A stretch of 64,000 bases of DNA from an uncultured Acidobacteriota bacterium (GTDB lineage Bacteria > Acidobacteriota > Thermoanaerobaculia > Multivoradales > JBCCEF01). Position 1 is the first letter of the stretch. Every line of letters begins with the position of its first letter. The translations under genes and the position numbers were made by a program. The stretch lies in NCBI GenBank assembly GCA_963843275.1, contig CAWJJM010000012.1:221756-285755 (forward strand). Reading direction: 5' to 3'. The notes beneath the pieces were generated by a model that was not told where the DNA came from, ran no database searches, and saw only the letters and a program-made list of their open reading frames with translations. Positions 19,501 through 35,197 of the stretch are shown piece after piece.

Positions 19501-20011
19501 CGCCGCGGTGGCGAGCTCCGGCTCGCCGATCGGCAACGGCATCCGTGTCCTGGTCCAGGGCCGCACCACCGCCACGCTGCTCATCGACGGCAACACCATC
19601 CGCCAGGTGCCGCAGGCGCGCGGCATCGACGTCCAGTTCCTCGGGCCGCTCTCCTCGGGGCAGCCGCTGTCGCAGAGCGACGTCACGGTCACCGGCAACG
19701 ACGTCAACCCGCAGGATTCGACGGGCTTCCCGACCGCCGCCATCTACCTGGCGGCGGACAGCCAGGGCGGCTCACCGGTTCGCATGCGCTCCGACGTGCG
19801 CAGCAACACCGTGCCGGCCGGCGCCGCCTTCGACGCGCTACCGACGTACCTGATCGTCGACGAGGTCGCGGCGGCGGCGGAGGCGCAGCTCGTCGACACC
19901 GCGCCGGCGAGCGCGAGCTGCACCGCGCAACTGACCAGCACCAACACCGGCAGCGCCTCGGCGGCGGCCGGCTGCGCCCTGATCGCGGGCCCGATCAACA
20001 CGCCCCCCTAG
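13518..20011 (+). CDS. Giant (~2160 aa) secreted repeat protein/adhesin: at least 9 tandem ~95-aa cadherin/Ig-like (VCBS, tandem-95 type) repeats plus ~900-aa Gly/Thr/Ser/Asn-rich beta-helix-like C-terminal region; 2 frameshifts and 1 in-frame TAG as assembled
   Basis: Repeats of form VNDAPVAVDDTYAVDEGGVLNVSAPG..DTDAEGGSLTAALVSGPSHASSFTLNADGSFSYTHDGSETT.DTFTYKANDGSLDSNTATVSITV; frame 0 to ~14990, frame 1 to ~15285, frame 2 to 20011; TAG at 16109-16111; first ~200 aa may be a separate fused ORF (see findings). Confidence 0.75.
14340..16860 (+). repeat. Intragenic tandem repeat array (~285-bp period, several copies about 90% identical at DNA level) inside giant adhesin gene
   Basis: e.g. 14893-15185 and 16232-16525 are near-identical (gtgaacgcggtcaacgacgccccggtggcggtcgacgacacctacgcggtggacga...). 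Confidence 0.8.
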
Positions 20012-20059: not shown

Positions 20060-20563
20060 ATGGCGGAACCTTTCCTCAGTGAGATCCGACTGATGGGCTT
20101 CGGCTTCCCACCGAAGGGCTGGGCGCTGTGCGACGGGCAGCTTCTCCCGATCAACCAGAACCAGGCGTTGTTCTCGCTGCTGGGGACGACCTTCGGCGGC
20201 GACGGGCGGGTCAACTTCGCGCTCCCCGACCTGCGCGCCCGGGTCCCGATCCACGTCGGCGGTGGGCACACCCTGGGCGAGCGCGGTGGCGAGCAGGGGC
20301 ACACCCTGAGCCTCGCGGAGATGCCCACCCACACCCACGTGCTCCAGGCGACGTCGAGCGACGGCACCCAGGTGATCGCCGCGGGAGCCCTGCTGGCGCG
20401 CGCGGCGCCTGCCAACCCCTATTCGGCCCCGACGAACCTGGCGGCGATGCAGGCCGCCTCGGTCGCCAACAACGGCGGCAGCCAGGCGCACCTCAACCTG
20501 CAGCCGCTCCTGACCCTCAGCTTCTGCATCGCCCTGCAGGGCATTTTCCCGAGCCCGACCTGA
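20060..20563 (+). CDS. Phage tail-collar domain protein (MdpB/COG4675-like), paralogue 1 of 3
   Basis: MAEPFLSEIRLMGFGFPPKGWALCDGQLLPINQNQALFSLLGTTFGGDGRVNFALPDLRARVP...HTHVL = Collar (PF07484-like) signature; C-terminus ...LNLQPLLTLSFCIALQGIFPSPT; GGAGG RBS. Confidence 0.85.
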   Translation: MAEPFLSEIRLMGFGFPPKGWALCDGQLLPINQNQALFSLLGTTFGGDGRVNFALPDLRARVPIHVGGGHTLGERGGEQGHTLSLAEMPTHTHVLQATSSDGTQVIAAGALLARAAPANPYSAPTNLAAMQAASVANNGGSQAHLNLQPLLTLSFCIALQGIFPSPT

Positions 20564-20572
20564 GGAACGACG

Positions 20573-21073
20573 ATGGCCCAACCCTACGTCGGGGAGATTC
20601 GCATCTTCGGCGGTAACTTCGCGCCCGCGGGGTGGATGTTCTGCGAAGGGCAGCTGTTGCCGATCTCGGAGAACGAGACGTTGTTCCAGCTCATCGGAAC
20701 GACCTACGGCGGAGACGGACAGGACACCTTCGGGCTCCCGGATCTGCGGGGCCGATTGCCGGTCCACCAGGGCAACGGCTTCGTTCTCGCGCAGGCCGAC
20801 GGCGCGGAGGAGGTCACCCTGACCGTGAGCCAGATCCCGTCCCACGCACACCCCCTGCTCGCGGCCAACGCCGTCGGGAACGATCCCAACCCCCAGGGCA
20901 ATCTGCTCGCCGAGAGCTCCGCGGTGTCGATGTACCAGAGCGGTGCGGCGAACGCCGCGATGGCGACGTCGATCGCCGCGGTGGGCGGCAGCCAGCCGCA
21001 CACCAACTTCCAGCCCTATCTCTGCCTGAACTTCATCATCTCTTTGTTCGGCATCTTCCCCAGCCCGACCTAG
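20573..21073 (+). CDS. Phage tail-collar domain protein, paralogue 2 of 3
   Basis: MAQPYVGEIRIFGGNFAPAGWMFCEGQLLPISENETLFQLIGTTYGGDG...LPDLRGRLP...PSHAHPL; C-terminus ...NFQPYLCLNFIISLFGIFPSPT; 9-bp spacer from paralogue 1. Confidence 0.85.
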   Translation: MAQPYVGEIRIFGGNFAPAGWMFCEGQLLPISENETLFQLIGTTYGGDGQDTFGLPDLRGRLPVHQGNGFVLAQADGAEEVTLTVSQIPSHAHPLLAANAVGNDPNPQGNLLAESSAVSMYQSGAANAAMATSIAAVGGSQPHTNFQPYLCLNFIISLFGIFPSPT

Positions 21074-21080
21074 GAGCGAC

Positions 21081-21608
21081 ATGGCCGACCCCTTCGTCGC
21101 CGAGATCCGCATCTTCCCCTTCAACTTCGCACCCAAGGGCTGGGCCTTCTGCGACGGCCAGCTCCTGCCGCTGTCGCAGAACACCGCGCTGTTCTCGCTG
21201 CTCGGGACCACGTACGGTGGCAACGGCAAGTCGAACTTCGCGCTGCCGGATCTTCAGGGCCGGGCGCCGATGCACCCTGGCCAGGGCCCGGGTCTCTCGC
21301 TGCACGACCTCGGCGAGACCGGCGGGTCGGAGACGGTGACCCTTCTCGAGTCCGAGACGCCCGCTCACGGGCACACGCTGCAGTCCAACGGCGCGCCCGC
21401 GAACCGGACCACTCCGGTGGGCAACTCCATCGCCCGGGTCTCCGGTGCGACGCCCTACTCCGACGGCGCCGCGAACCCGCCGAGGGTGCCGATGTCCGAC
21501 CAGGCCCTCGCCCCCGCGGGCGGCGACCAGCCGCACAACAACATGATGCCCTTCCTGACCCTCAACTTCTGTATCGCCCTGCAGGGCGTCTTTCCGCCGC
21601 GCACCTGA
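21081..21608 (+). CDS. Phage tail-collar domain protein, paralogue 3 of 3
   Basis: MADPFVAEIRIFPFNFAPKGWAFCDGQLLPLSQNTALFSLLGTTYGGNGKSNFALPDLQGRAP...PAHGHTL; C-terminus ...NMMPFLTLNFCIALQGVFPPRT; 7-bp spacer from paralogue 2. Confidence 0.85.
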   Translation: MADPFVAEIRIFPFNFAPKGWAFCDGQLLPLSQNTALFSLLGTTYGGNGKSNFALPDLQGRAPMHPGQGPGLSLHDLGETGGSETVTLLESETPAHGHTLQSNGAPANRTTPVGNSIARVSGATPYSDGAANPPRVPMSDQALAPAGGDQPHNNMMPFLTLNFCIALQGVFPPRT

Positions 21609-22510: not shown

Positions 22511-22640
22511 CTACCAGCCGCCTCCTCCGCCGCCGCCGGACGACCCGCCGCCCCCGCCGCCGCCGCCGCCGGACGAGCCGCCGGAGGAGCTCGAGGCGGC
22601 GGAGACGCCCGCCGCCATGCCGCCGATCGCCGCGGTCCAC
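22511..22640 (-). repeat. GC-rich simple-sequence tract (ccgccgccg / ggacga... repeats) encoding the Gly/Ser tail of the DUF2207 protein
   Basis: ccagccgcctcctccgccgccgccggacgacccgccgcccccgccgccgccgccgccggacgagccgccggaggagc... read directly. Confidence 0.7.
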
Positions 22641-24505
22641 GATCCCGAGGCTCCGCCGCCGCCGAACGCCCCGCCGCCGCCGGTCCAGCCGCTGCTCCCG
22701 GAGGTCAGCGCCCCGCCGCCGGTCGTGGCCTCGGCCAGGCCGCCGCCGGCCGCCGCGACGCCCCAGCGGCGCGACCAGCGCGCCACCCTGCCGCCGAGGC
22801 CGAAGGCGAGCAGATAGGGAAGCCAGGCGTCGTCGAGCGCGGGGCGCTCGCGCCCGAGCTCGGCGCGCAGCCAACGGCGCGCCAGGTGGAGGCGACCGCG
22901 CAGGCGCAGCATCTCCGCCGTCTCGCGGCTCGCGGCGTGGTGCAGGAAGCTCGACAGGACGACCAGCGGCGCGAGCAGGCAGGCCGCGATCCCGAACGGT
23001 CCGAGGTGCGGATAGCCGTCCCCCGGCCACCAGTGGTCGTGCCCGGCGACGGCGACCGCGGCGGCGGCCAGCGCCGCCCAGGGCAGGAGGAAGCCGAGCG
23101 CCGCCGGCCCGAGGTGGCGCATCCGGTGACGCCAGCGGGCCGCGCTCCCGGCGCCGAGCAGGAGGCTCAGCAGGAATCCGGCGACGAGGAGCAGGGCGAG
23201 GACGATCGCCTGGCCGGCGCCCCGCGTGGCCCCCTCGCCGACCAGGCAGGCCAGACAGGCCGTGAAGAGGAGCAACGTCCGCCGCGCCCGTGGCTTCGCG
23301 GTCTCGGCGGCGAGCCCGCGGCGGCCCCCGAGGCGCTTCTCGATGCCCTTGCGGACGATGTCGACCGGGGAGAAGCCGCGGGAGCGGTAGTGGCGGCGGA
23401 CGGCGGCGGTGTCGGTCACCCGCCGGTCACCGAAGAAGAGCTTGTCGATCAGGGTGCGCTCGTAGCCGGTGAGCTCGCCCCGCGGCACCTCGAGCTCGAG
23501 CTCGAGCTCGGGGGAGCCGAACCACCAGCGCGGCGGCTTGACGGTGCTCGCCAGCTTGCCCTCGGCGACCAGCCGGGCGAGCAGCGCCGCCACCTCGGCG
23601 GAGCCGACCTCGCGGTCCCACAGGGCCCCGAGCTGCTCGGCCGGCAGCGCCAGCACGGTGCTCTCGATCCAGGCGCGGTCGGGGTGGGAGGGCAGCTCGG
23701 GGTCGCGGCGGAAGCGGCCGAGCGCCGCCTCGCGGCGGACGAAATCGGCGGCCAGCAGCGCGGCGGCGGCTGCGGCGGCGGCGAGCAGCGCGAAGAGCAC
23801 GCTGCGGCGGACGGCGCGCAGGGTGGCGCCGGGAACGCCGTCGCCGACGTGGTCGAGGTCGACGGTCACCACCTCGGTGGCGCCGGGGGGCAGCGGGCCG
23901 CCCTCGCGGTGCAGGTGGCCCGCGCCGTCGAACAGTGGATTGCGCGGCGGCGGTCGCCAGGCGGGATCGAGGTCGAGGTCGAGGACGAAGCGCTCGATGG
24001 CGCCGTCGCGGTCGGGGAAGGCGAAGTCGTGGTCGAGGCGGTAGAGACCCGGCCGCCCCGCGTGCTGGGTGAGCACCCCGGTGAGCCGGTAGGCCAGCAG
24101 GTAGGTGATCTCGGTCCCGTCGAAGGGCGGGTCGTCGGGCGCCCGGCTGCGCCAGCGCAGGGTGGTCGAATCGCTCCAGTCGTAGTGGTCGACGCTGTCG
24201 AGATCGCCCGCCACCAGCGGCAGCTCGGCGCCCGTCGCCGCGTCGAGGCGCGCCACCCGGTCGAGCGCGAGATGCTGGCCCATGGCGACGCGGAAGCGGC
24301 GCTCGCCGCCGTTCCAGTCGCCGGTGAACACGATCGCCTGGCGCTCCTCCACGTGCAGAGCGCCGTCGGCGTCGAGGCGGGCGTGCACCGCGAGCTCGCG
24401 CCAGTGGAGCTCCCGCTCCTGGGCGGCGGACGGCGGGGCGAGGGCGAGCGCCGCGAGCGCCAGGAGCCCGGCACCGCCGAGGAACCGGTTCGGCTTCGTT
24501 GCCAT
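22511..24505 (-). CDS. DUF2207-family membrane protein with N-terminal signal peptide and Gly/Ser-rich C-terminal tail ending in Trp
   Basis: Start MATKPNRFLGGAGLLALAALALAPPSAAQ; extracellular domain; several TM helices (LLLFTACLACLVGEG..., IVLALLLVAGFLLSLLLGAG...); tail ...GGGGASGSWTAAIGG...SSGGGGGGGGGSSGGGGGGGW typical of DUF2207. Confidence 0.7.
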   Translation of the reverse strand: MATKPNRFLGGAGLLALAALALAPPSAAQERELHWRELAVHARLDADGALHVEERQAIVFTGDWNGGERRFRVAMGQHLALDRVARLDAATGAELPLVAGDLDSVDHYDWSDSTTLRWRSRAPDDPPFDGTEITYLLAYRLTGVLTQHAGRPGLYRLDHDFAFPDRDGAIERFVLDLDLDPAWRPPPRNPLFDGAGHLHREGGPLPPGATEVVTVDLDHVGDGVPGATLRAVRRSVLFALLAAAAAAAALLAADFVRREAALGRFRRDPELPSHPDRAWIESTVLALPAEQLGALWDREVGSAEVAALLARLVAEGKLASTVKPPRWWFGSPELELELEVPRGELTGYERTLIDKLFFGDRRVTDTAAVRRHYRSRGFSPVDIVRKGIEKRLGGRRGLAAETAKPRARRTLLLFTACLACLVGEGATRGAGQAIVLALLLVAGFLLSLLLGAGSAARWRHRMRHLGPAALGFLLPWAALAAAAVAVAGHDHWWPGDGYPHLGPFGIAACLLAPLVVLSSFLHHAASRETAEMLRLRGRLHLARRWLRAELGRERPALDDAWLPYLLAFGLGGRVARWSRRWGVAAAGGGLAEATTGGGALTSGSSGWTGGGGAFGGGGASGSWTAAIGGMAAGVSAASSSSGGSSGGGGGGGGGSSGGGGGGGW

Positions 24506-24605: not shown

Positions 24606-24899
24606 CTAGGTGAAGACCGCCTCGTAGGTCGTGCCGTCGTCGTCGCGGGCGACCGGGACCAGGAAGAGGTCCAGGACCCCCATCTCGGTGTTCTCCAGGC
24701 GGTAGATCCGCTGCGGGAGCAGCGGCTCGCGCGGGCCGTGGAAGTGGAGCGAGAACTGCTCGCGCGCCGCGCGGCCCTGCAGCCCGGTGCTGCGGACGTC
24801 CGCCAGCTCGAGGTCGATCTCACCCGACGCCGCGCCGGCGAGGCGGAAGGCCTCGCCCCGCCGCGGCAGGAACGAGTCCTTGGTCAGCTTGTCCAGCAT
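24606..24899 (-). CDS. Hypothetical protein (97 aa)
   Basis: MLDKLTKDSFLPRRGEAFRLAGAASGEIDLELADVRSTGLQGRAAREQFSLHFHGPREPLLPQRIYRLENTEMGVLDLFLVPVARDDDGTTYEAVFT; GC3-rich codon usage; no recognisable domain. Confidence 0.4.
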   Translation of the reverse strand: MLDKLTKDSFLPRRGEAFRLAGAASGEIDLELADVRSTGLQGRAAREQFSLHFHGPREPLLPQRIYRLENTEMGVLDLFLVPVARDDDGTTYEAVFT

Positions 24900-24947: not shown

Positions 24948-25530
24948 ATGTCGAAACGTCGAGCAGCCCCCGGCCGCCACCGGACCGGTCACCGCGTCCC
25001 CGGCCGGCCTGCGCCTGCGCCCCGCGGTGGACGACGACCTGCCGTTCCTGGCGGAGCTCTACGCCTCCACCCGGCGGGCCGAGGTCGACCCCCTGCCCTG
25101 GACCGCGGAGGAGAAGGAGGGCTTCCTGCGCTGGCAGTTCGAGAGCCAGCACCGCCACTACCTGGAGTACTACCCGGGGTGCGAGCGGCTGGTGGTCGAG
25201 CGGCCCATCGGGGGGGCGACGAGCGCCGCGACGGCGCCGGTCGGCCGCCTCTACGTCGACCGCTGGCCGGACCAGATCCGGCTGGTCGACATCGCGCTGC
25301 TGCCCGAGCACCGCGGCCGGGGGCTCGGCTCCGCCCTGCTGGAGACGATCCTCGCCGAGGGCCGGCGGCGGTCGCTGCCGGTCACCATCCACGTGGAGGC
25401 GAACAACCCCGCGCTGCGCCTCTACCGCCGCCTCGGCTTCCGCCACGTCGACGACAACGGCGTCTATCAGCTCCTCGAGTGGCGGCCGGAGGGGGCGCCG
25501 CCGGCGGCGGCGGCCGCCGCGTCCCCCTGA
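24948..25530 (+). CDS. GNAT family N-acetyltransferase (frameshift at A-run ~24955)
   Basis: ATG 24948 then shift: M S (K/N) V E Q P P A A T G P V T A S P A G L R L R P A V D D D L P F L A E L Y... ; acetyl-CoA-binding motif ...LLPEHRGRGLGSALLETIL... Confidence 0.75.
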
Positions 25531-26888
25531 GGTGCCGGTCCGGCGGGGAGCAGGCGACCGCAGGGGGCGATGGCGAGGGCGGGGGAGGAGACGGCGCCCC
25601 AGGGCGCGCCGCCGGCCGCGAAGACGACCGGGGCCTCACCCACCGCGACGAGGTGGCTGAAGACCTCCCGCAGGTCGGCCTCCCACAGCAGGTCGCCCAC
25701 CGGCGCGCCCGGGCCGTCGGCGGCGAGCCGCCGGACGTTGCGGGCGATCCCGCGGAAGCGCCCCGGCACCAGGTCGTGGGGGTGCAGGCCACGGAGCTCG
25801 CCGATCCACAGCCCGCCCGCCACCGCCTCGGCGAGAGCCTCGTCGGAGGCGCCGCCGGGGGCGACGAACAGGTGGGCGGCCCGCGTCTCGTCGCCCCCGA
25901 CGTCGTGCGGTGTCGCCGCCAGGCCGAGCGACGCGGCCAGCGCCGCGTCCACCGCGGGGGTCAGCAGGCGGCCCGCCCGCACCATCTCGACCCGCCGCTT
26001 CGCATGGCCCGAGAGGTCGAAGGGCAGCGGCAGGCCGGCGGCGTCGCCGCCGTCGTCGACGAGCCCGAAGAGCGGCGAGAAGACGTCGCGCCCCACGGCG
26101 CCGGCGAGGTACGAGGAGCCGTCGGCGAAGGGGCGGGCGGCGAGCGCCGTGCGGTTGAGCAGCGCCACGAGCGCCGCCGCCGCCTCCGGCGACAGCAGCA
26201 GGGCGGCCGTCGCCGGCGGGGCGGCCGCCGGGCTGCCGTCCGCGGCGCGGGCCCGGGCGCGCTCGAGGACACGGGGGGCCGCGAGCGCCGCCAGGCTGCG
26301 CGCCGAGGCGGCGGCCCACCCGGCGCCGGGCCCGTCGCCGTGGCGGGCGGCGAGGGTGAGGGCGGTGGCCTCGGTCGACGCCACCAGTCCCTGGCTGTTG
26401 GCCACCACCAGGCGCAGCGCGCTCCAGTCGAGGCCGAGGCGCTCGCCGGCGCCCTCGCCGGCGGCGAGAAGCTCCCTCGCGCTCCCGGGAGTGAGCTCGG
26501 CGACGGCGGCGTCGTGCAGCGGCACCTCGGGCGCGCGCGCCGCCTCCTCCGGCCCCGGCAGGTCGAGCGACGCTCCCGGGGCGGCGAGGCGCGACTGGCC
26601 GAGGGCGAGGCGCACGGCGCTGGCGAGGGCGGCGGGATCGCCGGCCTCGCCGCGGTGGAACCCGAGGCGGCCGGCCGCCTCGACCCGCACCTGCACCAGG
26701 CGTCGCCAGCGCGGCGGCGGGTCGTCGGGCTCCGCGGTGGCGGCGCGCCCCCGGAGAACCTCCAGCCACACCGCCTCGGTGGCGTCGGCGACCGATCCCG
26801 CCACGGCGTCGCGCAGGCGGGAGACCACCTCGGTCAACGGCGGGGCCGTGGCGGGGGGGGCGAGGGACTGGGCTCGGACCGGAGGCAT
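25467..26888 (-). CDS. TldD/PmbA-like (peptidase U62 family) protein, divergent
   Basis: 473-aa ORF starting MPPVRAQSLAPP; C-terminal region GGLWIGELRGLHPHDLVPGRFRGIARNVRRLAADG...VGDLLWEADLREVF...GGAPWGAV resembles TldD/PmbA core (GL..EL.G.H....G.F.G.A.N); size fits the family. Confidence 0.5.
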   Translation of the reverse strand: MPPVRAQSLAPPATAPPLTEVVSRLRDAVAGSVADATEAVWLEVLRGRAATAEPDDPPPRWRRLVQVRVEAAGRLGFHRGEAGDPAALASAVRLALGQSRLAAPGASLDLPGPEEAARAPEVPLHDAAVAELTPGSARELLAAGEGAGERLGLDWSALRLVVANSQGLVASTEATALTLAARHGDGPGAGWAAASARSLAALAAPRVLERARARAADGSPAAAPPATAALLLSPEAAAALVALLNRTALAARPFADGSSYLAGAVGRDVFSPLFGLVDDGGDAAGLPLPFDLSGHAKRRVEMVRAGRLLTPAVDAALAASLGLAATPHDVGGDETRAAHLFVAPGGASDEALAEAVAGGLWIGELRGLHPHDLVPGRFRGIARNVRRLAADGPGAPVGDLLWEADLREVFSHLVAVGEAPVVFAAGGAPWGAVSSPALAIAPCGRLLPAGPAPQGDAAAAAAGGAPSGRHSRS

Positions 26889-26990
26889 GCCGGGGGAGGG
26901 CGGGCAGCCGCAGTCTACCGTGGCTTGTCCTTTGCAGCCTCCGGCTGCGAGAATGGGCGCTCTTCGAACGCCTGGACTCGAGAGAGCGCG

Positions 26991-28694
26991 ATGCTTTTGC
27001 GGAGCCTGCGAACCCTTGTGATGCTGGCCGCGATGCTGGGGGTCTCCGGAGCGACCTTTGCGGAGGACGCCGCCGACCTCCTGCTGACGCACGGCGTCTT
27101 CTACCCCGTGGTGCCGCCGGGGTCGGTGCAGGGCAGCCTGGCGGTCCGGGGCGGGCGCATCGTCTACCTCGGACCCGACGCGGGAGCCGCGGCCTACCGC
27201 GGCCCGGCGACCGAGGTGATCGACCTGCGCGGGCGCGCCGTCACGCCGGGGCTGATCGACGCCCACTCCCACCTGACCGGCCTCGGCCAGGCGCTCGCCC
27301 AGGTCGACCTGGTGGGGACCGGCAGCTATGCCGAGGTGGTGTCGCGGGTCGCCGCCGCGGCGGCCGACGCCCCCGCCGGCGCCTGGGTCCGCGGCCGCGG
27401 CTGGGACCAGAACGACTGGGCCGACGAGGCCTTCCCGACCCACGGGGCGTTGAGCCGGGCGGTGCGCGACCACCCGGTGTGGCTCACCCGCATCGACGGG
27501 CACGCGGCGCTGCTCAACGCGGCCGCCATGGAAGCGCTGGGGATCGGGCCGGACACCCCCGACCCGCCCGGCGGCCGCCTGCTGCGCGACGCGGCCGGGC
27601 GGCCCACCGGCGTGCTGGTCGACAACGCGATGGACGTCGCCGTCGGCCGCATTCCCGAGCCCACCCTGGCCGAGCGCGAGAAGGCCCTGCGCCGCGCCGC
27701 CGAGCACTGCCTGGCGCGCGGCCTGACGACGGTGACCGACATGGGGGTGGGCGCCGACGACCTGGCCGCCTACCAGGCGCTGCGCGCGGCGGGGGAGCTG
27801 CCGCTGCGGGCGGCGGTGTTCCTCGCCGACGACGCCGACCTGCTGGCGGATTGGCTGCCGCGCGGGCCGCGCCTCGATCCCGAGGGCCGGCTCACCATCC
27901 GCGGCGTCAAGCTGTACGCCGACGGCGCCCTGGGCAGCCGCGGCGCGGCCCTCCTCGAGCCCTACGACGACGACCCGGGCAACCTCGGGCTGCTCGTGTC
28001 GAGCGGCGACCACCTGCGCGACGTCGCCACGCGGTCGCTGGCGGCGGGCTTCCAGGTCGGCATCCACGCCATCGGCGACCGCGGCAACCTGGTGGCGCTC
28101 GACGCCCTCGAGGCGGCGCTGGCGACCCTGCCGGAGGGCGCCGCGGACCCGCGGGTGCGGATCGAGCACGCCCAGGTCATGCGGCCGCAGGACATCGTGC
28201 GCATGGCGCGGCTCGGGGTGATCGCCTCGATGCAGCCCACCCACGCCACCTCGGACATGCCGTGGGCCGCCGACCGGGTGGGGGCGCTGCGGCTCGCCGG
28301 CGCCTACGCCTGGCGGAAGGTCCTCGACGCCGGCGGGCGGCTGGCGCTGGGCAGCGACTTCCCGGTCGAGCGGGTCGATCCGCTGCTCGGCATCTACGCC
28401 GCGGTGACCCGCCAGGACCTCGACGGACGGCCGCCGGGCGGCTGGCTTCCCGACCAGCGGCTGAGTCGCGCCGAGGCGCTGCGCGGCTTCACCCTCGACG
28501 CCGCCTGGTCGCTGTTCCTCGACCCGCTGGTGGGCTCGCTCGAGCCGGGCAAGCGCGCCGACCTGGTGGTGTTCGACCGCGATCCGATGCAGGTGCCGGC
28601 GATCGAGATCCCGCGGGTGGCGGTGGACCTGACCGTGGTCGACGGCCGCGTCGCCTACCGGCGGGCGCAGCCGGCGGCGGAGGGGGCGCGATGA
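26991..28694 (+). CDS. Secreted amidohydrolase (Amidohydro_3 / YtcJ-like metal-dependent hydrolase)
   Basis: MLLRSLRTLVMLAAMLGVSGATFA signal; ...VTPGLIDAHSHL...WLTRIDGHAALLN...VGIHAIGDRGN...LALGSDFPVE...; 568 aa intact. Confidence 0.85.
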   Translation: MLLRSLRTLVMLAAMLGVSGATFAEDAADLLLTHGVFYPVVPPGSVQGSLAVRGGRIVYLGPDAGAAAYRGPATEVIDLRGRAVTPGLIDAHSHLTGLGQALAQVDLVGTGSYAEVVSRVAAAAADAPAGAWVRGRGWDQNDWADEAFPTHGALSRAVRDHPVWLTRIDGHAALLNAAAMEALGIGPDTPDPPGGRLLRDAAGRPTGVLVDNAMDVAVGRIPEPTLAEREKALRRAAEHCLARGLTTVTDMGVGADDLAAYQALRAAGELPLRAAVFLADDADLLADWLPRGPRLDPEGRLTIRGVKLYADGALGSRGAALLEPYDDDPGNLGLLVSSGDHLRDVATRSLAAGFQVGIHAIGDRGNLVALDALEAALATLPEGAADPRVRIEHAQVMRPQDIVRMARLGVIASMQPTHATSDMPWAADRVGALRLAGAYAWRKVLDAGGRLALGSDFPVERVDPLLGIYAAVTRQDLDGRPPGGWLPDQRLSRAEALRGFTLDAAWSLFLDPLVGSLEPGKRADLVVFDRDPMQVPAIEIPRVAVDLTVVDGRVAYRRAQPAAEGAR

Positions 28695-29416
28695 GGCGGG
28701 TCCGCCGGGCGGCGGCCGCCCTGCTCGCCGCGTCGCTCGCCGGCGCCGGCGCCGCGCCGCTGGCGGCCGCCCCGGCCGACCCGTACCGGGAGCAGCGCCA
28801 GGAGATGGTCGAGCAACAGGTCCGGGGGCGGGGGATCGACGACCCGGCCGTCCTGGCGGCGATGGCCGAGGTGCCACGGCACCTCTTCGTCGCCGAGGCC
28901 GACGTCGCCACCGCCTACGCCGACCGCGCCGTCGCCATCGGCTACGGCCAGACCGTCTCGCAGCCCTACGTGGTGGCGCTGATGACCTCGCTGCTCGGCC
29001 TCGACCACGACGACCGGGTGCTGGAGATCGGCACCGGTTCGGGCTACCACACGGCGGTGCTGTCGCGGGTCGCCGGCCGCGTCTACTCGATGGAGATCAT
29101 CGAGCCGATGGCCCGCCAGGCGCAGCGGCGGCTCGCCTCGCTGGGCTACGACAACGTCGAGATCCGGGTCGGCGACGGCTACAAGGGCTGGCCCGAGGAG
29201 GCGCCGTTCGACGCCATCATCCTCACCGCCGCGCCGCCGCGGATCCCCCAGCCGCTGATCGACCAGCTCAAGGTGGGCGGGCGCATGGTGGTGCCGGTCG
29301 GCGGCTACATCCAGGATCTGCAGGTGATCGACAAGACGGCGGACGGACTGCAGAAGCGCACCGTCATCCCGGTGCGGCTGCAGCCGATGACCGGGCAGGT
29401 GCGGGAGGGCGGATGA
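28691..29416 (+). CDS. pcm: Protein-L-isoaspartate O-methyltransferase with N-terminal signal peptide (copy 1)
   Basis: MRRVRRAAAALLAASLAGAGAAPLAAAPA then ...AMAEVPRHLFV...AIGYGQTVSQPYVVALMT...VLEIGTGSGYHTAVLS...GDGYKGWPEEAPFDAIILTAA; ATG overlaps upstream stop (ATGA). Confidence 0.9.
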   Translation: MRRVRRAAAALLAASLAGAGAAPLAAAPADPYREQRQEMVEQQVRGRGIDDPAVLAAMAEVPRHLFVAEADVATAYADRAVAIGYGQTVSQPYVVALMTSLLGLDHDDRVLEIGTGSGYHTAVLSRVAGRVYSMEIIEPMARQAQRRLASLGYDNVEIRVGDGYKGWPEEAPFDAIILTAAPPRIPQPLIDQLKVGGRMVVPVGGYIQDLQVIDKTADGLQKRTVIPVRLQPMTGQVREGG

Positions 29417-30213
29417 GGCTGCCGGCCGCCGGAGCGCTGGCGGTCGTCGCGCTGGCCGTTCCGCTGGCCGCCTGCCCCGGCCGCTCGCCGGCCGCGCCGC
29501 CGGGCCCCGGCGCCGGCTTCGCCGACCAGCGTCAGGCCATGGTCGACGTGCTGCGCTCGGCCGCGATCCGCGACCCGCGGGTGCTGGAGGCGATGGCCGA
29601 GGTCCCCCGCCACCGCTTCGTGCCGCCGCCGTGGCAGGGCGCCGCGTACCGCGACGAGCCGCTGCCCATCGGCCACGGCCAGACGATCTCCCAGCCCTAC
29701 GTGGTCGCCCTGATGTCGTCGCTGGCCGACCTCCACGGCGGCGACAAGGTGCTGGAGATCGGCACCGGCTCGGGCTACCACGCCGCGGTGCTGTCGCGCC
29801 TCGCCGGCCGCGTCTACTCGATCGAGATCGTGCCAGCGCTCGCCGACCGGGCGCGCCGCACCCTCGCCGAGCTGGGCTACCGCAACGTCGAGGTGCGCCG
29901 CGGCGACGGCTACAGGGGGTGGCCGGAGGCGGCGCCGTTCGACGCCATCGTGCTGACCGCGGCGCCGCGACACATCCCGCCGCCGCTGCTCGCCCAGCTC
30001 GCCGTGGGCGGACGGCTGGTCGCCCCCGTGGGCGGCCGCGAGCAGGAGCTCACGCTGATCACCCGCACCCCGGCGGGCTACCGGCGCGAGTCGATCACCC
30101 CCGTGCGCTTCGTCCCCATGACGGGGGAGGCGGACCGGGAGCCCGGGTCGGAGCCCGGCCCCGGCTCCGACCCCGGCCGAGCCGCCGATCCTGGCGGCCG
30201 TGCACCCGGTTGA
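29413..30213 (+). CDS. pcm: Protein-L-isoaspartate O-methyltransferase with lipoprotein-like signal peptide (copy 2)
   Basis: MRLPAAGALAVVALAVPLAAC...; ...AMAEVPRHRFVP...PIGHGQTISQPYVVALMS...VLEIGTGSGYHAAVLS...GDGYRGWPEAAPFDAIVLTAA; start overlaps pcm-1 stop (ATGA). Confidence 0.9.
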   Translation: MRLPAAGALAVVALAVPLAACPGRSPAAPPGPGAGFADQRQAMVDVLRSAAIRDPRVLEAMAEVPRHRFVPPPWQGAAYRDEPLPIGHGQTISQPYVVALMSSLADLHGGDKVLEIGTGSGYHAAVLSRLAGRVYSIEIVPALADRARRTLAELGYRNVEVRRGDGYRGWPEAAPFDAIVLTAAPRHIPPPLLAQLAVGGRLVAPVGGREQELTLITRTPAGYRRESITPVRFVPMTGEADREPGSEPGPGSDPGRAADPGGRAPG

Positions 30214-30248: not shown

Positions 30249-31985
30249 ATGAGCCACGAGGCGCTGTGCCCCGCCGTCCCCCTGATCGCCGGCCTGTTGC
30301 TCGTCGCCGGCCTGCCGCCCGCCGCCGCGCAGGAGCCGCCGCCGCTCTTCGTCGAGCGCGTCGACGTCAACGTCGTCAACGTCGAGGTCTTCGTCACCGA
30401 CGCGCGGGGGCGCCAGGTCGCCGGCCTCGGCCGCGAGGACTTCGAGGTGCTCCAGGACGGCGAGCCGGTCGAGGTCACGAACTTCTTCTCCATCTCGCGG
30501 CAGGACCGGGTGGCGGAGGCGCTGAGCGCCTCGCCGGCGGAGCTCGCCGCCGGCGCGGCCCGCGGCGGCGCCGTCGACCTGCCCCCCGAGCAGCAGCTCA
30601 ACCTGCTGGTCTACGTCGACCACTTCAACCTCCATCCGTCGACGCGTAGCCGGGTGCTCGACGACCTGCGCGGCTTCCTCGAGGACCGCATGTTCGAGGG
30701 GGACCGGGTGATGGTGATGGGCTACGACGGTCAGCTCGACCTGGTGCAGCCGTTCACGCGCGATCCCGTCGCCGTCGACGCGGCGCTGGCCGGCATGAAG
30801 AAGGTCAAGACGGGCCGGCAGCAGTTCGACGCCCGGCGCAACCGCGTCATGGCGGGCATCCGCATCGCGTTCCGCGACGGCGAGCCGGTGGTGGCGAACG
30901 AGCTGGTGCGCGGCTACATCCAGGAGCAGCAGCTCGAGCTGCGGCGCTCGGCGAAAGCCCTGTCGACCGTGGTGCGCTCGCTGGCCGGGCTGCCCGGCCG
31001 CAAGGCGCTGGTGTACGTCAGCGAGGGTCTGCCGCAGCGGCCCGGCGAGGACCTCTACCAGTACATGGCGGAGATCTTCTCGCAGACGGAGATCCCCGGC
31101 GGGTCCGGCTTCTCCGCCGACAACGTCGACACCTCGATCGAGGCGCTCAAGGCCGACGAGTCGGCGGTGTTCGACGACATCACCCGGCACGCCAACGCCC
31201 ACCAGGTGACGCTGTATCCCGTCGACGCCCGCGGCGCCGCCGGCGACTCCACCCTCGGCGCCGACAACCCGGGCCTGATGATCGCCAACCGCACCGGGCT
31301 CGACGCCCTGCGCACGGTGATGCAGCAGGAGCCGCTGATCGAGATGGCGGTGGCGACGGGCGGCCGGGCGGTCCTCGGCACCAGCAACTTCGCCGACGCG
31401 ATGCGGACCGACGCGGGCGACTTCGACAACTTCTATTCCCTCGGCTACGCCTCGCCGGCGGCGGGCGACGGGCGGTACCATGTCATCGAGGTGCGGGTGA
31501 AGCGGCCGGGGCTCCGGGTGCGTCACCGCCAGGGCTACGTCGACAAGCCGCAGGCGGAGATCGTCGCCGACCGCACCCTGTCGTCGCTGGTCTACGGGCT
31601 GGAGTCCAACCCCCTGGGGGTGTCGATCGACTTCGGGACGCCCGAGCGCAGCGGCCGGCGCGCCGTCGTGGTCCCGGTGATGGTGCGGATCCCCTTCCGC
31701 GACGTGACGCTGCTCCCCAACGGTGCGCTGGAGGAGGGGCGGCTGCACATCTTCCTGGCGGTGCAGGACGACCGGGGCGGCGTCTCCGACCTCCACCGCC
31801 AGGACTACCCGCTGAGCATCCCCCACGAGCAGCTCGGCGCGGCCCGCGGCAAGGAGATCGGCTACCTGGTGCGCCTGCAGGTGACGCCGGGGACGCCGAC
31901 GGTGGCGGTCGGTGTCTGGGACGAGCTCTCCGGCACCGAGTCGTTCGTCCACAAGCAGCTGCGGGTCGCCCGGCCGCGCTCCTGA
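30249..31985 (+). CDS. VWFA-related domain protein (TIGR03436 'Acidobacterial VWA' family), signal peptide
   Basis: ...LFVERVDVNVVNVEVFVTDARGRQVAGLGREDFEVLQDGEPVEVTNF...LLVYVDHFNL...RKALVYVSEGLP...YPVDARG...YSLGY...DGRYHVIEVRVKRPGLRVRHRQGY: family-defining motifs. Confidence 0.8.
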   Translation: MSHEALCPAVPLIAGLLLVAGLPPAAAQEPPPLFVERVDVNVVNVEVFVTDARGRQVAGLGREDFEVLQDGEPVEVTNFFSISRQDRVAEALSASPAELAAGAARGGAVDLPPEQQLNLLVYVDHFNLHPSTRSRVLDDLRGFLEDRMFEGDRVMVMGYDGQLDLVQPFTRDPVAVDAALAGMKKVKTGRQQFDARRNRVMAGIRIAFRDGEPVVANELVRGYIQEQQLELRRSAKALSTVVRSLAGLPGRKALVYVSEGLPQRPGEDLYQYMAEIFSQTEIPGGSGFSADNVDTSIEALKADESAVFDDITRHANAHQVTLYPVDARGAAGDSTLGADNPGLMIANRTGLDALRTVMQQEPLIEMAVATGGRAVLGTSNFADAMRTDAGDFDNFYSLGYASPAAGDGRYHVIEVRVKRPGLRVRHRQGYVDKPQAEIVADRTLSSLVYGLESNPLGVSIDFGTPERSGRRAVVVPVMVRIPFRDVTLLPNGALEEGRLHIFLAVQDDRGGVSDLHRQDYPLSIPHEQLGAARGKEIGYLVRLQVTPGTPTVAVGVWDELSGTESFVHKQLRVARPRS

Positions 31986-32003: not shown

Positions 32004-33686
32004 TCAGCCGCCGATCCGCACCGGCCGGCGCAGGAAGGAGCTGTCGCCGCCGACCTCGTCGGTGACGCCGACGGCGACCTGGTGCGTCCCCGCCTCCATG
32101 CGCAGCTCGGCGGCGTAGGTGAAGACCTGGCCGCGGGCCGTCTCGAGATCGGCGTCGGGAACGGCGAGAGGGAAGGGCTCCTGGACCGGCGTCGAGGTCT
32201 CGCCGTCGCCGTCCATCACCGCCACCGAGACGCGCAGCCGTCCCCGGTGGCCGTCGGCGGTGGGCACCAGGGTGACGCGGCCGATCGGGATGAGCACCTC
32301 GAGGGGCAGGCGCCAGGTGCCCTTGCCGTCGGACTCCGGGGTGCCGAAGCGCACCTCGACGCCGAGCGGGTTGACGCCGACGCCGTAGAAGAGCGCCGCC
32401 AGGGTGCCGTCGCCGACCTCGCTCTCCAGCGTCTTGTCGCGGTAGCCCAGCCGGTGCCGGACGGTCACCCCGCGCCGCTTCACGCGCACGGAGATGTCGT
32501 GGTAGCGGCCGTCCCCCTGGTGCGCCGGCGTATAGCCCAGCGAGTAGTAGGACGTCAGGTCGGCCTCCATGGCGGCGAGCGCCCCGTCGACGTTGGCGGT
32601 GTTCAGCGAGGCGCGGCCGCCGGTGCCCTCGGCCAGTGCCAGCAGCGGCTCCTGGCGGTTGGCGTCGTGGATGAAGTCGAGGTCGACGGTGGAGCCCGCC
32701 GAGCCGCCGTGCTCGGCGGAGATCGAGTCGCGGGGACCGCCGCCGGCGGCGTCGATCGGGTAGAAGGTGACCCGGTTGGCGTTGGCCTTCGCCACCAGCT
32801 CGTGCAGCTCCGAGCGCAGCAGGTAGCGGTGCGAGGTGAGCATCCCGGTGGTGCTGCGCCCGAAGCGGTCGTCGACGCGGTTGAAGAGGTCCTCGCCGGC
32901 AGCCATCGGCAGCCCCTCGCTGACGTAGACCAGCGCCTTGCGGCCGACCAGCCCGCCGAGCGACGAGATCAGCTCACCCAGCGCGTTGACGCTGTGGCGG
33001 GCGTCGTCGTAGAGACCACGGGCGTAGAAGTCCGCCGCCGAGGCGGCCTCGGAGGCCCCGTTGGCCTTGTCGATCCGGTCGACCACCCGCCGGCGCTCGG
33101 TGGCCGACTCCTCGCCCAGCGCGTGCACCCGCTCGAGGCGGTCGAGCGCGTCCTGCGCCAGGGCCGGGTCGGCGGTGAACGTCTGCTCGATCGACAGCGA
33201 GTGGTCGAAGCTGACCACCATCACGCGGTCGCCGGGCCGCAGCTCCGTCGCCAGGAAGCGCTTGACGCCGCGCAGGGCCTGGTTGCGGCGGAACGGCGAG
33301 AGGAACAGGTTGTCGACGTAGACCACCAGGTGGAGGCGCTCGGCGGCCGCGGCCTCGACCTCGGCGGCGGCGGTCGGGGGTCGAGGCGCGGGGCGGGCGG
33401 GCGCGGTCGGGCGCACCGCCGGGGTGGCCGCTCCGACCTCGGCGAAGTTGGTCAGCGGCACCGGCCTGCCGTCCTCGGAGACCTCGAAGTCGTCGGCGGT
33501 GAGGCCGTGGACCGGGCGGCCGTCGCGCCCGGTCACCACGACGTCGACGTTGACCACGTGGACGGCCAGCGACTCGAAGAACATCTCGTCGGAAGCCGGC
33601 GGGGCCTCGGGGGCCTGCCCGGCGGCCACCCAGGCCAGCGACGCCAGGCAGGGCACGAGCAGCTGACGGCGGATCGCGGCTCTCAT
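32004..33686 (-). CDS. VWFA-related domain protein (TIGR03436 family), paralogue, signal peptide
   Basis: MRAAIRRQLLVPCLASLAWVAAGQAP...ESLAVHVVNVDVVVTGRDGRPVHGLTADDFEVSEDGRPVPLTNF...HLVVYVDNLFL...RKALVYVSEGLP...YPIDAAGG...YSLGY...DGRYHDISVRVKRRGVTVRHRLGY. Confidence 0.8.
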   Translation of the reverse strand: MRAAIRRQLLVPCLASLAWVAAGQAPEAPPASDEMFFESLAVHVVNVDVVVTGRDGRPVHGLTADDFEVSEDGRPVPLTNFAEVGAATPAVRPTAPARPAPRPPTAAAEVEAAAAERLHLVVYVDNLFLSPFRRNQALRGVKRFLATELRPGDRVMVVSFDHSLSIEQTFTADPALAQDALDRLERVHALGEESATERRRVVDRIDKANGASEAASAADFYARGLYDDARHSVNALGELISSLGGLVGRKALVYVSEGLPMAAGEDLFNRVDDRFGRSTTGMLTSHRYLLRSELHELVAKANANRVTFYPIDAAGGGPRDSISAEHGGSAGSTVDLDFIHDANRQEPLLALAEGTGGRASLNTANVDGALAAMEADLTSYYSLGYTPAHQGDGRYHDISVRVKRRGVTVRHRLGYRDKTLESEVGDGTLAALFYGVGVNPLGVEVRFGTPESDGKGTWRLPLEVLIPIGRVTLVPTADGHRGRLRVSVAVMDGDGETSTPVQEPFPLAVPDADLETARGQVFTYAAELRMEAGTHQVAVGVTDEVGGDSSFLRRPVRIGG

Positions 33687-33829
33687 GCTCGGTTCCTCGC
33701 GGGAAGGTCGGAGGACGGCCCCCGGGCGGCGCAGTGTAGCACCCGCGCGGCCGCCGGCAGCCACCGCCGCTGACGTAGACTCGGCCGACGACCGCGGGGC
33801 GCGGCGCGCCGCGCCCGGTGGAGGTCCCG

Positions 33830-35197
33830 ATGCGTTCCCATCCCCTGTTCCGCTCCCTCGCCGCCGCGCTCTCGGCGCTCCTGCTGGCCGCCTGCGCCAC
33901 CACCGACCTGCCCCCGATCCCGGCGGCCGGTCCCGGCTTCCGGCCGCTGCCCGACGAGGTCGAGCTGTGGCAGGAGGCGCGCGCGGAGGAGGCCCGGCTC
34001 CTGGCCGAGGCGCCCGTCTACGACGATGCGGCGTTGACCGCCTACCTGGAGGACGTGGCGGCGCGGCTGACGCCGCCGGCGATGGCCTCCAACCCGCTGC
34101 TGTCGCACCGCGTCACGGTGCTGGCCGACCCGACGTTGAACGCGTTTTCGTATCCCCATGGAAGCCTGTACGTGCACACCGGCCTGTTGGCCCGCCTCGC
34201 CAACGAGGACCAGCTCGCCACCGTCCTCGGCCACGAGATCAGCCACGTCGAGTACCGGCACATGGTGCGCCACCGGCGCGCCGCCGCCAATCGCGCGGTC
34301 GGCGTCGGGATCGCCGCCTTCGCGGCCCTGGTGGTGCTGACCGCCGCGGAGATCGACGCCGCCGACGAGGGCAAGTGGGTGCGCGCCGAGAACCTCCATT
34401 TCTTCGCTGAGCTGGTGGTGGACCTGGGTCTGCAGATCGCCTTCGTCGCGGCGGTCAACGGCTACGGTCGCAAGCTCGAGCTGGAGGCGGACCGGGGAGG
34501 GTTCCGCAAGCTCGCCGCGGCCGGCTACCGGCCGGCCGAGGCGTCCGAGATGTACGAGACGCTGCTCGCCTCCACCGCCGGCGAGGCCGGACGTCTCGAG
34601 ACCTTCTTCTTCGGCTCGCACCCACGGCTGACCGAGCGCATCGACAGCGCCCGCCGCTGGGCCGAGAGCGGTGTTGCGGAGGAGGACGCCGCGGCGGACG
34701 AGGGGCCGGCGCCGGCGGGAGACGCGGAGCGCTTCGCCCGCGTCCTCCAGCCGGTGTTGCGCGACGACGCGCGGATGAACCTCGAGCGGGGGCGGCTCGA
34801 CCTCGCCGCGGCGGACCTCGAGCGGGCGCTCGGCTGGGACGCGGACGACGCCGAGGGCCGCACCCTGCTCGGCGAGCTCCGCCTGCTGCAGGCGGCGGCG
34901 ACGCCCGCCGCGGAGGCGGAGGCGCTGCGCGACGACGCGCGCCGCGCCTTCCACGAGGCGATCCGCCTGGATCCCGACCTGGCGGAGCCGCACCGCGAGC
35001 TGGGGCTGTTGCTGGCGGACGACGGCGACGCCGCCGGGGCCTGCCGCGAGCTCGGCCACTACCTGGAGCTGGCGCCCGACGCCGACGACGCCGCGGAGAT
35101 CGACGACCGGCGGTACGAGCTCGAGGAGGCCGGGGCCTGCGCCCTTCCCGCCGCGCCCCCTCCCGAGGCCGCCGGCGCCGTCTACATCCGCGAGTAG
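33830..35197 (+). CDS. M48-family Zn metallopeptidase lipoprotein with TPR-like C-terminal region
   Basis: MRSHPLFRSLAAALSALLLAAC (lipobox); HEXXH in ...LATVLGHEISHVEYRHM...; C-terminal Ala/Asp/Glu-rich helical repeats. Confidence 0.75.
   Translation: MRSHPLFRSLAAALSALLLAACATTDLPPIPAAGPGFRPLPDEVELWQEARAEEARLLAEAPVYDDAALTAYLEDVAARLTPPAMASNPLLSHRVTVLADPTLNAFSYPHGSLYVHTGLLARLANEDQLATVLGHEISHVEYRHMVRHRRAAANRAVGVGIAAFAALVVLTAAEIDAADEGKWVRAENLHFFAELVVDLGLQIAFVAAVNGYGRKLELEADRGGFRKLAAAGYRPAEASEMYETLLASTAGEAGRLETFFFGSHPRLTERIDSARRWAESGVAEEDAAADEGPAPAGDAERFARVLQPVLRDDARMNLERGRLDLAAADLERALGWDADDAEGRTLLGELRLLQAAATPAAEAEALRDDARRAFHEAIRLDPDLAEPHRELGLLLADDGDAAGACRELGHYLELAPDADDAAEIDDRRYELEEAGACALPAAPPPEAAGAVYIRE

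Follow-up and report, generated by a model that had tools for sequence, protein, structure and literature searches.

Isoaspartyl methyltransferases with predicted export signals linked to an amidohydrolase in Thermoanaerobaculia-type Acidobacteriota

Introduction

Isoaspartate formation is among the commonest spontaneous lesions of proteins, and the sole known enzyme of its repair, protein-L-isoaspartate O-methyltransferase (PIMT or Pcm), has to our knowledge been described as cytoplasmic. Proteins of the envelope and surface lie beyond the reach of cytoplasmic Pcm and of the ATP-dependent cytoplasmic proteases. In Escherichia coli, the gene is arranged as surE-pcm-nlpD, and beta-aspartyl peptides are cleared by the isoaspartyl dipeptidase IadA of the amidohydrolase superfamily and the isoaspartyl aminopeptidase IaaA of the Asparaginase_2 family. 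This study concerns a stretch of 64,000 nucleotides (the window; positions 221,756 to 285,755 of contig CAWJJM010000012.1, assembly GCA_963843275.1) from an uncultured Acidobacteriota bacterium, in which a gene for a YtcJ-like amidohydrolase is followed by two tandem pcm genes, pcm1 and pcm2, and all three products bear predicted export signals. An earlier reading of the bare letters of the window (the sequence-only reading) had pointed out this arrangement and proposed an envelope-located module for repair or processing of isoaspartyl residues.

Compared with housekeeping Pcm (PF01135; NF001453 and TIGR00080; structures 3lbf and 4l7v), the window copies displayed the same full-length domain with the motifs binding S-adenosylmethionine (SAM) and the isoaspartyl residue. 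They differed from it in a predicted Sec-type or lipoprotein signal of 29-35 N-terminal residues, in their tandem paralogy, and in having an apparently exported amidohydrolase as partner, so that their conserved signal-like N-termini did not match the cytoplasmic location of characterized Pcm. No SurE or NlpD homologues were seen among the annotated neighbors. The two superfamilies of the E. coli clearance enzymes both adjoin Pcm here, one as the operon's amidohydrolase and the other as an Asparaginase_2 protein encoded two genes 5' of the amidohydrolase in related loci. Unlike IadA, the window amidohydrolase is a signal-bearing YtcJ-like Amidohydro_3 protein of 567 aa with generic similarity only (E 2.7e-4) and, unlike IaaA, the Asparaginase_2 proteins of related loci are signal-bearing and score 322 bits against a cut-off of 567.

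A dedicated repair system outside the cytoplasm exists for methionine sulfoxide in the form of periplasmic MsrPQ, where MsrP obtains electrons via its membrane partner MsrQ. The resemblance is one of functional analogy only, as the proteins are unrelated and no SAM-delivery device was evident in the present locus. The PIMT homologues associated with peptides that are ribosomally synthesized and then modified post-translationally (RiPPs), of the graspetide (TIGR04188) and FxLD (TIGR04364) types, have the same methyltransferase fold and adjoin peptide-processing genes. In contrast, the window copies reached 117-146 bits against cut-offs of 320-380, had no RiPP maturase or precursor nearby, and carried predicted export signals. 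A precedent for a specialized location of a second Pcm paralogue is the complex-I-bound PIMT of Paracoccus denitrificans (8qby_t, E 4e-27), which is bound to the hydrophilic, cytoplasmic arm of complex I, and whose substrate binding is reported to be obstructed in the complex (PMC11522691). The window proteins differ from this PIMT in keeping all motifs and in bearing predicted export signals.

Results

Structure of the operon

The genes and signals of the operon were placed as follows (coordinates are those of the window).

26991..28694 (+): amidohydrolase, YtcJ-like (Amidohydro_3, COG1574-type), 567 aa, signal-like N-terminus; PF07969, 373.6 bits
26991..27062 (+): predicted Sec-type signal peptide of the amidohydrolase, residues 1-24, MLLRSLRTLVMLAAMLGVSGATFA followed by ED; hydrophobicity heuristic, H=2.68
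28691..28694 (+): ATGA overlap of the amidohydrolase stop and the pcm1 start; read from the sequence
28691..29416 (+): pcm1, protein-L-isoaspartate O-methyltransferase, 241 aa, predicted Sec-type signal; NF001453, 234.6 bits
28691..28777 (+): predicted signal peptide of pcm1, residues 1-29, MRRVRRAAAALLAASLAGAGAAPLAAAPA followed by DPY, putative cleavage site; heuristic, GC content at third codon positions (GC3) of 1.00
29413..29416 (+): ATGA overlap of the pcm1 stop and the pcm2 start; read from the sequence
29413..30213 (+): pcm2, protein-L-isoaspartate O-methyltransferase, 266 aa, predicted lipoprotein signal; NF001453, 249.8 bits
29413..29475 (+): predicted lipoprotein signal peptide of pcm2, lipobox L18-A19-A20-C21, Cys codon 29473-29475; heuristic

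The amidohydrolase ATG lies at 26991; in the sequence gcgcgATGAggcgg, pcm1 begins with ATG at 28691 and the amidohydrolase ends with TGA at 28692-28694; in ggcggATGAggctg, pcm2 begins with ATG at 29413 and pcm1 ends with TGA at 29414-29416; and the pcm2 TGA is at 30211-30213. Since the GC content was 70-80% along the whole window and most long open frames were therefore spurious, a codon-position GC plot was relied on, which displayed three successive forward frames (approximately 26950-28690, to 29410, and to 30200) with frame switches coinciding exactly with the gene junctions. The same gene calls (567, 241, and 266 aa with the same starts) were present in a public protein collection, all from one contig of 2,036,331 bp. 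GGAGG-like sequences were located 4-8 nt 5' of the pcm1 and pcm2 starts, within the preceding genes, including a GGAGG at 7 nt from the pcm1 ATG.

The two ATGA overlaps reported by the sequence-only reading at 28691/28694 and 29413/29416 were exact. The coupling of the three genes that it had deduced from them gained from conservation of the overlaps in relatives and from a search for terminator-like sites that found none within or between the three genes, and a single translationally coupled operon is the natural reading of these sequence features. A scan for sigma-70 promoters gave no match, as expected at 75% GC, and an Rfam and riboswitch search of the leader matched no family, including no SAM riboswitch. 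The 100-nt leader between a PmbA-like gene and the amidohydrolase start also contained a terminator-like hairpin with a T-rich tail at 26906-26925 (+).

Conservation of the amidohydrolase-Pcm linkage

With pcm1 as query, 80 loci were obtained from species-representative genomes, and in the reciprocal direction the amidohydrolase gave a further set of 80 from metagenome contigs. The amidohydrolase was immediately upstream in 11 of the 80 pcm1-scan loci, and these 11 were labeled Thermoanaerobaculia, Holophagales, or Acidobacteriota. Among amidohydrolase orthologues of at least 63% identity with enough downstream DNA, Pcm was the next gene in every case (32/32, both scans), with two copies in approximately 24 loci and one in seven. 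For amidohydrolase relatives at 45-53% identity, Pcm was in the flanks of 0/57. The flanking genes varied among the related loci around an invariant amidohydrolase-Pcm core, which suggests from gene order that the amidohydrolase and Pcm are functionally linked. The idea that exported Pcm has one and the same partner gene throughout the other phyla was rejected as well, since neighbor clustering across 80 genome loci yielded synteny confined to particular lineages (ThrRS, glycosyltransferase, ABC ATPase, and others).

Predicted export signals and start codons

Signal peptides were called by a heuristic of our own, the best 10-residue Kyte-Doolittle mean, so that all localizations given here are predictions from sequence. 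The amidohydrolase scored 2.68 with a site at TFA/ED (a slash marks the predicted cleavage); pcm1 scored 2.14, with four Arg in the n-region, a 23-residue uncharged run, and a site at APA/D; and pcm2 scored 2.78 with the lipobox LAAC ending in Cys21, behind which lies a Pro/Gly-rich tether. Cytoplasmic controls (GNAT, PmbA-like, DUF6916, E. coli Pcm, and both Pcm copies from an internal Met) scored 0.8-1.6. The pcm1 product is predicted to be a soluble periplasmic enzyme.

Mis-called starts would offer another account of these N-termini, with initiation at an internal Met (M39 of pcm1 and M43 of pcm2) giving cytoplasmic Pcm and leaving the "signals" as untranslated spacers. An in-frame ATG does stand at the start of the catalytic domain in both copies, a few database entries begin there (P0037 and P0048, 204 aa), and spurious long open frames are common at 75% GC. 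Against this, GC3 was 1.00 for pcm1 codons 2-38 and 0.93 for pcm2 codons 2-42, compared to 0.97-0.98 in the domains. A 4-nt overlap ([AG]TGA) of the amidohydrolase stop with the first Pcm start was present in 30/33 loci, the window included, so that the extension starts at the upstream stop and leaves no room for a spacer, and the second Pcm start overlapped the end of the first by 1-20 nt in 21 of the 25 two-copy loci. The internal Met lacked usable Shine-Dalgarno spacing and belongs to a motif (RxxMV) also conserved in relatives with short hydrophilic N-termini, which marks it as a structural residue. Residue 8 of solved Pcm aligned with pcm1 residue 37, an offset by which the mature pcm1 domain would begin near residue 30, right after the predicted cleavage site, while initiation at the Met would lose the residues aligned to approximately the first seven of solved Pcm.

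The orthologues bore on the same question. A hydrophobic core of at least 2.0 was found in the extension of all those measured, 28/28 at position 1 (at least 2.14) and 21/21 at position 2, and the extensions had an identity of 0.37-0.38 vs. 0.67 for the domain; signal peptides are expected to behave in this way, keeping their hydrophobic character as the residues change. Approximately half of the position-2 orthologues had a lipobox Cys at the equivalent place (IAAC, VIAC, AVAC, LAAC, AFAC, and VAAC) and the rest had Sec-type sites. In genomes of 30-57% GC, including Ignavibacteria, Cytophagia, Brocadia, Udaeobacter, and Calditrichota, a single Pcm was preceded in frame by lipoprotein signals (MIFFLSC, MTFLSVSC, FIAMTFAC, VIAISC, IATTGC, and LLILISC), and as chance open frames are unlikely at low GC, these extensions count as real coding signals that also speak against mis-called starts. 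The Sec-type signal on pcm1 and the LAAC lipobox on pcm2 that were noticed from the window alone are in this way supported by the heuristic, GC3, and the orthologues, and the downstream-Met case that could have undone them was judged against on GC3, the overlaps, and the conserved hydrophobic cores.

Twin-arginine translocation (Tat) was tried as a general answer to SAM supply outside the cytoplasm and was rejected. The Tat motif (S/T-R-R-x-F-L-K) was not conserved: window pcm1 contains RR, which was absent from many orthologues (VKPFARAV..., VKLLTRTLL..., and VKRLVRVLL...) and from the low-GC lipoprotein forms.

The two Pcm copies

Both copies are, to judge from their sequences, canonical Pcm in every catalytic motif. 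Pfam PCMT (PF01135) was matched with 214.3 bits by pcm1 and 206.1 bits by pcm2, the Pcm equivalog NF001453 with 234.6 and 249.8 bits (cut-off 188), and TIGR00080 with 217 bits (cut-off 159), while the solved structures 4l7v and 3lbf matched pcm1 at E 1e-50 from query residue 37. The motifs GQT[VI]SQP, VLEIGTGSGY, VYS[MI]EI, GDGY.GW, PFDAI, and GGR.V.PVG were present at residues 86, 110, 131, 161, 172, and 196 of pcm1 and 89, 113, 134, 164, 175, and 199 of pcm2. The substrate-binding motif reads GQTVSQP in pcm1, a conservative change of Ile to Val, and GQTISQP in pcm2, and both copies keep GDG, PFD, and the acidic residue that follows strand 2. This extends the earlier observation that VLEIGTGSGY is retained in the two copies to all other catalytic motifs. 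QTISQP, LEIGTGSGY, GDG, and PFD were at least 90% conserved among the 106 nearest short cluster representatives.

The copies were 60% identical over 211 residues. In a neighbor-joining tree, the position-1 copies formed one clade with the position-2 copies outside it, a split indicating an old duplication, and the window copies grouped with the corresponding copies of loci L088, L090, and L001. An assembly duplication, which the sequence-only reading had named as a way to fail, was thereby excluded by the 60% identity and the separate old paralogue groups, and the pair occurred in more than 20 independent loci. Residues 241-266 of pcm2 (30133-30210) form a Pro/Gly/Asp-rich C-terminal tail, EADREPGSEPGPGSDPGRAADPGGRAPG, with a GC3 of 0.77, below the rest of the gene; the tail lies outside the Pcm domain, and pcm2 tblastn matches in related loci stop near query residues 236-256.

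The amidohydrolase

The Pfam match of the amidohydrolase (PF07969, 373.6 bits) covered profile positions 1-472 of 472, and no NCBIfam equivalog was reached. Its best solved relatives, 3icj and 3igh (E 1e-57), are both described as an "uncharacterized metal-dependent hydrolase" and aligned over query residues 32-534, near the full length, including the motifs DAHSH, GVK, IHAIGD, IEH, and GSD. The likeness extends to six putative metal ligands, H92, H94, K307, H359, H393, and D456, all aligned with 3icj; the solved relatives carry no assigned substrate. The putative Lys ligand suggests a binuclear center of the kind found in IadA, hydantoinases, and imidases, not one of deaminase type; a substrate such as a beta-aspartyl peptide or a succinimide would agree with a center of this kind. 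Similarity to isoaspartyl dipeptidase, hydantoinases, ureases, and the methylthioadenosine/S-adenosylhomocysteine (MTA/SAH) deaminase was generic, at superfamily level only. An IadA-type identity was rejected, the matches (8dqn, E 2.7e-4; 5xgx, E 0.1) extending over approximately 50 N-terminal residues, around the HxH motif.

Export of a YtcJ-like amidohydrolase, also read from the window alone, agreed with this family assignment and with a signal-like N-terminus in 33/33 orthologues, ending in the conserved PS[YFL]A/ED.ADL[IV]L. This predicted exported N-terminus (PS[YFL]A/ED.ADL) and an obligatory Pcm linkage set the orthologous group apart from 3icj and 3igh.

Distribution of signal-bearing Pcm

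A signal-like extension was found in 113 of the 120 clusters (90% identity) closest to pcm1. An exhaustive pcm2 search of 1.84 billion cluster representatives gave 27,390 relatives, 3,279 of them at E <=1e-30, and the best 150 representatives of 50%-identity clusters comprised 93 with signal-like extensions (32 with a lipobox), 16 without an extension, and 41 with other extensions. The latter included some borderline signals, and the ten long ones that were scanned were mostly fusions with cytoplasmic enzymes. Signal-bearing Pcm occurred across at least a dozen phyla, in lineages such as Acidobacteriota, Verrucomicrobiota/Udaeobacter, Ignavibacteria, Calditrichota, Latescibacteria, KSB1, and Zixibacteriota. 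A full-text search of the literature turned up no bacterial Pcm described as exported or periplasmic. The pair in the window, which had been presented as a local oddity, is real and is one instance of a very widespread signal-bearing class.

Natural Pcm-Pcm fusions were found in P0121 (482 aa, lipobox LTGC) and P0002 (399 aa), where the substrate motif of the first domain is degenerate (GQSMFRP or GQIIPRP for GQTISQP) and the second domain is canonical. These sequences hint that tandem Pcm pairs act together, with one partner possibly turning non-catalytic. In P0262 (502 aa), an S33/S28-type alpha/beta-hydrolase peptidase domain is fused to a C-terminal Pcm, a possible further link of Pcm to peptide hydrolysis. 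As a functional clue to the exported form, Rosetta-stone fusions were uninformative, the partners being mostly cytoplasmic neighbors (AdoMet synthetase, lipid A acyltransferase, RtcA, nitroreductase, cytidylate kinase, HAD, and DJ-1), and of all fusions only the Pcm-Pcm lipoproteins bear on it.

Genomic context

An Asparaginase_2 gene was located two genes 5' of the amidohydrolase in 13/35 loci, approximately half of those with enough upstream sequence (e.g., L007:1132-2157, L004:1746-2744, L008:1755-2744, L081:1554-2525, and others). It matched PF01112 with 385 bits, its best NCBIfam match was beta-aspartyl-peptidase, and most copies with a complete N-terminus had a predicted signal peptide. 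An apparently exported neighbor of this beta-aspartyl-peptidase-like type gives independent support to the isoaspartate theme.

The operon is flanked in the window by the following genes.

25467..26888 (-): PmbA/TldD-family gene, divergent, start codon uncertain; PF19289, 79.5 bits
30249..31985 (+): VWA-domain protein with predicted signal peptide, 35 nt 3' of pcm2; TIGR03436, 187.8 bits

Fifteen related loci had a PmbA/TldD homologue in matching position and orientation, the window copy being 44% identical to one of these homologues, and a SpoIIE-GAF phosphatase was further upstream in related loci. No terminator-like site was found between pcm2 and the VWA gene, which may be co-transcribed with pcm2 and is not a conserved part of the module: apart from the window, pcm2 was followed by such a gene in L088 and L090 alone, the two closest relatives of the window, and elsewhere the downstream genes were LamG-like, RDD/SpoIIM-like, or others. 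The RDD-family and SpoIIM-like proteins, which followed pcm2 in 6-8 related loci (L081:7234-7944, L101:8546-9541, and equivalents), were the only membrane proteins recurrently adjoining the operon.

The remaining features were observed in the window beside the operon. Two paralogues of the acidobacterial VWA family TIGR03436, at 30249-31985 (+) and 32004-33686 (-), are convergent, 38% identical, and both signal-bearing, with stops 18 nt apart. They are followed at 33818-35197 (+) by an envelope protease-like peptidase M48 and TPR protein with a lipoprotein signal whose LAAC lipobox is like that of pcm2. On the other side, a DUF2207 membrane protein that ends in a long Gly/Ser tail (22511-24505, -), a DUF6916 protein (24606-24899, -), and a GNAT acetyltransferase (25027-25530, +) hold the place of the relatives' SpoIIE-GAF phosphatase and Asparaginase_2 genes, the upstream flank having been replaced in the window lineage. 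Three tandem Phage Tail Collar proteins of approximately 170 aa (20060-20563, 20564-21073, and 21081-21608, all +; 94-98 bits) lie directly 3' of large cadherin-like/Big_9 adhesin genes (13518-15482 and 16229-20011).

Discussion

The strict amidohydrolase-Pcm linkage, the predicted export signals on all partners, and the recurrent Asparaginase_2 neighbor together favor an extracytoplasmic module for repair or clearance of isoaspartyl residues in the envelope, with salvage as its main variant, a comparative reading to which we assign a probability of roughly 0.55. According to this model, an operon of Thermoanaerobaculia-type Acidobacteriota would export the amidohydrolase together with two forms of Pcm, one soluble (pcm1) and the other a lipoprotein tethered to the membrane (pcm2). 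Once in the periplasm or envelope, both Pcm would bind L-isoaspartyl (perhaps D-aspartyl) residues that have arisen spontaneously from Asn or Asp in long-lived envelope proteins or in peptides in passage, and would methylate the free alpha-carboxyl with SAM. The methyl ester would pass to a succinimide that partially reopens to normal aspartate, and the amidohydrolase may serve as a hydrolytic step in the same pathway, acting most plausibly on unrepairable beta-aspartyl peptides or on the succinimide or ester intermediate. The sequences themselves show the gene structure, the family membership, the intact catalytic motifs, the signal-like N-termini, the conserved operon with its overlaps, and the wide spread of signal-bearing Pcm. 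The export itself, the methylation of isoaspartyl residues in the envelope, the substrate of the hydrolase, the own or foreign nature of the targets, and a source of SAM outside the cytoplasm are suppositions of the model.

The envelope module put forward by the sequence-only reading is retained in this model, with the export signals, the canonical Pcm motifs, the conserved operon, and Asparaginase_2 in its favor. Its suggestion that the neighboring VWA proteins or the adhesin are the targets received no support from synteny, since the downstream genes differ among loci, and that part was dropped.

Several points weigh against an extracytoplasmic module. Localization rests on a hydrophobicity heuristic together with comparative evidence, and synteny inside one bacterial class could partly reflect common descent and not function. 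The amidohydrolase has no characterized close relative, so that its role in an isoaspartyl pathway is assigned through guilt by association. The Asparaginase_2 gene is absent from the window and, with its score below the beta-aspartyl-peptidase cut-off (322 vs. 567 bits), could instead encode a glycosylasparaginase-type enzyme. No transporter was conserved beside the operon genes in related loci, and we know of no extracytoplasmic source of SAM.

Of the alternatives, the one that survived best is that exported Pcm and hydrolases act on foreign peptides and proteins that have aged (necromass), in which isoaspartyl and D-aspartyl residues block ordinary peptidases, so that these can be degraded and taken up as food. 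Lineages of soil and sediment, in which signal-bearing Pcm is common, are often described as polymer and protein degraders, and the neighborhood is rich in hydrolases (the amidohydrolase, the PmbA/TldD-family protein, and the apparently exported Asparaginase_2 of relatives). However, spending one SAM per damaged residue would be poor energetics for a gain in amino acids, methylation by itself cleaves nothing, the conserved core has no peptide transporter, and the SAM supply would be just as unexplained. Salvage in place of self-repair is clearly less probable than an envelope module.

A programmed modification, by which exported Pcm, like the PIMT homologues in clusters for lanthipeptides, lasso peptides, and graspetides, would convert a specific Asp of a secreted protein or peptide to aspartimide or isoaspartate, e.g., in a binding motif of a surface protein, would agree with the partial matches to RiPP-type PIMT (TIGR04364, 127-146 bits; TIGR04188, 117-123 bits), the conserved PmbA/TldD-family neighbor, and the tandem-domain fusions with a degenerate first domain. 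RiPP modification is cytoplasmic, the RiPP-family scores are far under their cut-offs (320 and 380, respectively) in proteins that pass the Pcm equivalog, and the downstream secreted proteins differ among loci. The conserved neighbors included no ATP-grasp, lanthionine synthetase, lasso cyclase, or precursor-like small gene. Paralogues of Pcm with roles other than repair are known, among them the Paracoccus PIMT bound to complex I (PMC11522691). On balance, a programmed modification appeared improbable.

The paradox of SAM supply would also be eased if the exported proteins did not work as methyltransferases there, serving instead as an isoaspartyl-binding or chaperone-like module, or if they performed a single turnover with SAM carried along by Tat export, to which the RR pairs and the Ala/Gly-rich, weakly hydrophobic h-region of window pcm1 might be suited. 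SAM-binding residues are strongly conserved across the exported subfamily, which is unexpected for a non-catalytic binder, and twin arginines are missing in many orthologues as well as in the lipoprotein Pcm of low-GC phyla, leaving this account more doubtful still than a programmed modification. The start-codon evidence presented above made mis-called starts scarcely credible.

Returning to the envelope module, its most far-reaching form would be a so far undescribed pathway of isoaspartyl repair and clearance outside the cytoplasm of many diderm bacteria, in which exported Pcm is catalytic in the periplasm or at the surface, SAM must be exported or supplied, and the Thermoanaerobaculia amidohydrolase is a new pathway enzyme, e.g., a succinimide (cyclic imide) or beta-aspartyl hydrolase, that gives repair its direction or removes unrepairable residues; this generalization is speculative and we consider it unlikely at present.

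The enzyme family itself is already known, and what is new here is the breadth of signal-bearing Pcm together with the SAM paradox. If exported Pcm were inactive outside the cell, the strong conservation of SAM-binding residues would need explaining. The Pcm-linked amidohydrolase is a defined candidate for a new step in isoaspartate chemistry. If exported Pcm is active, the origin of the methyl donor outside the cytoplasm would become a sharp question, and damage control of the envelope proteome, or the use of aged peptides, would include isoaspartate chemistry.

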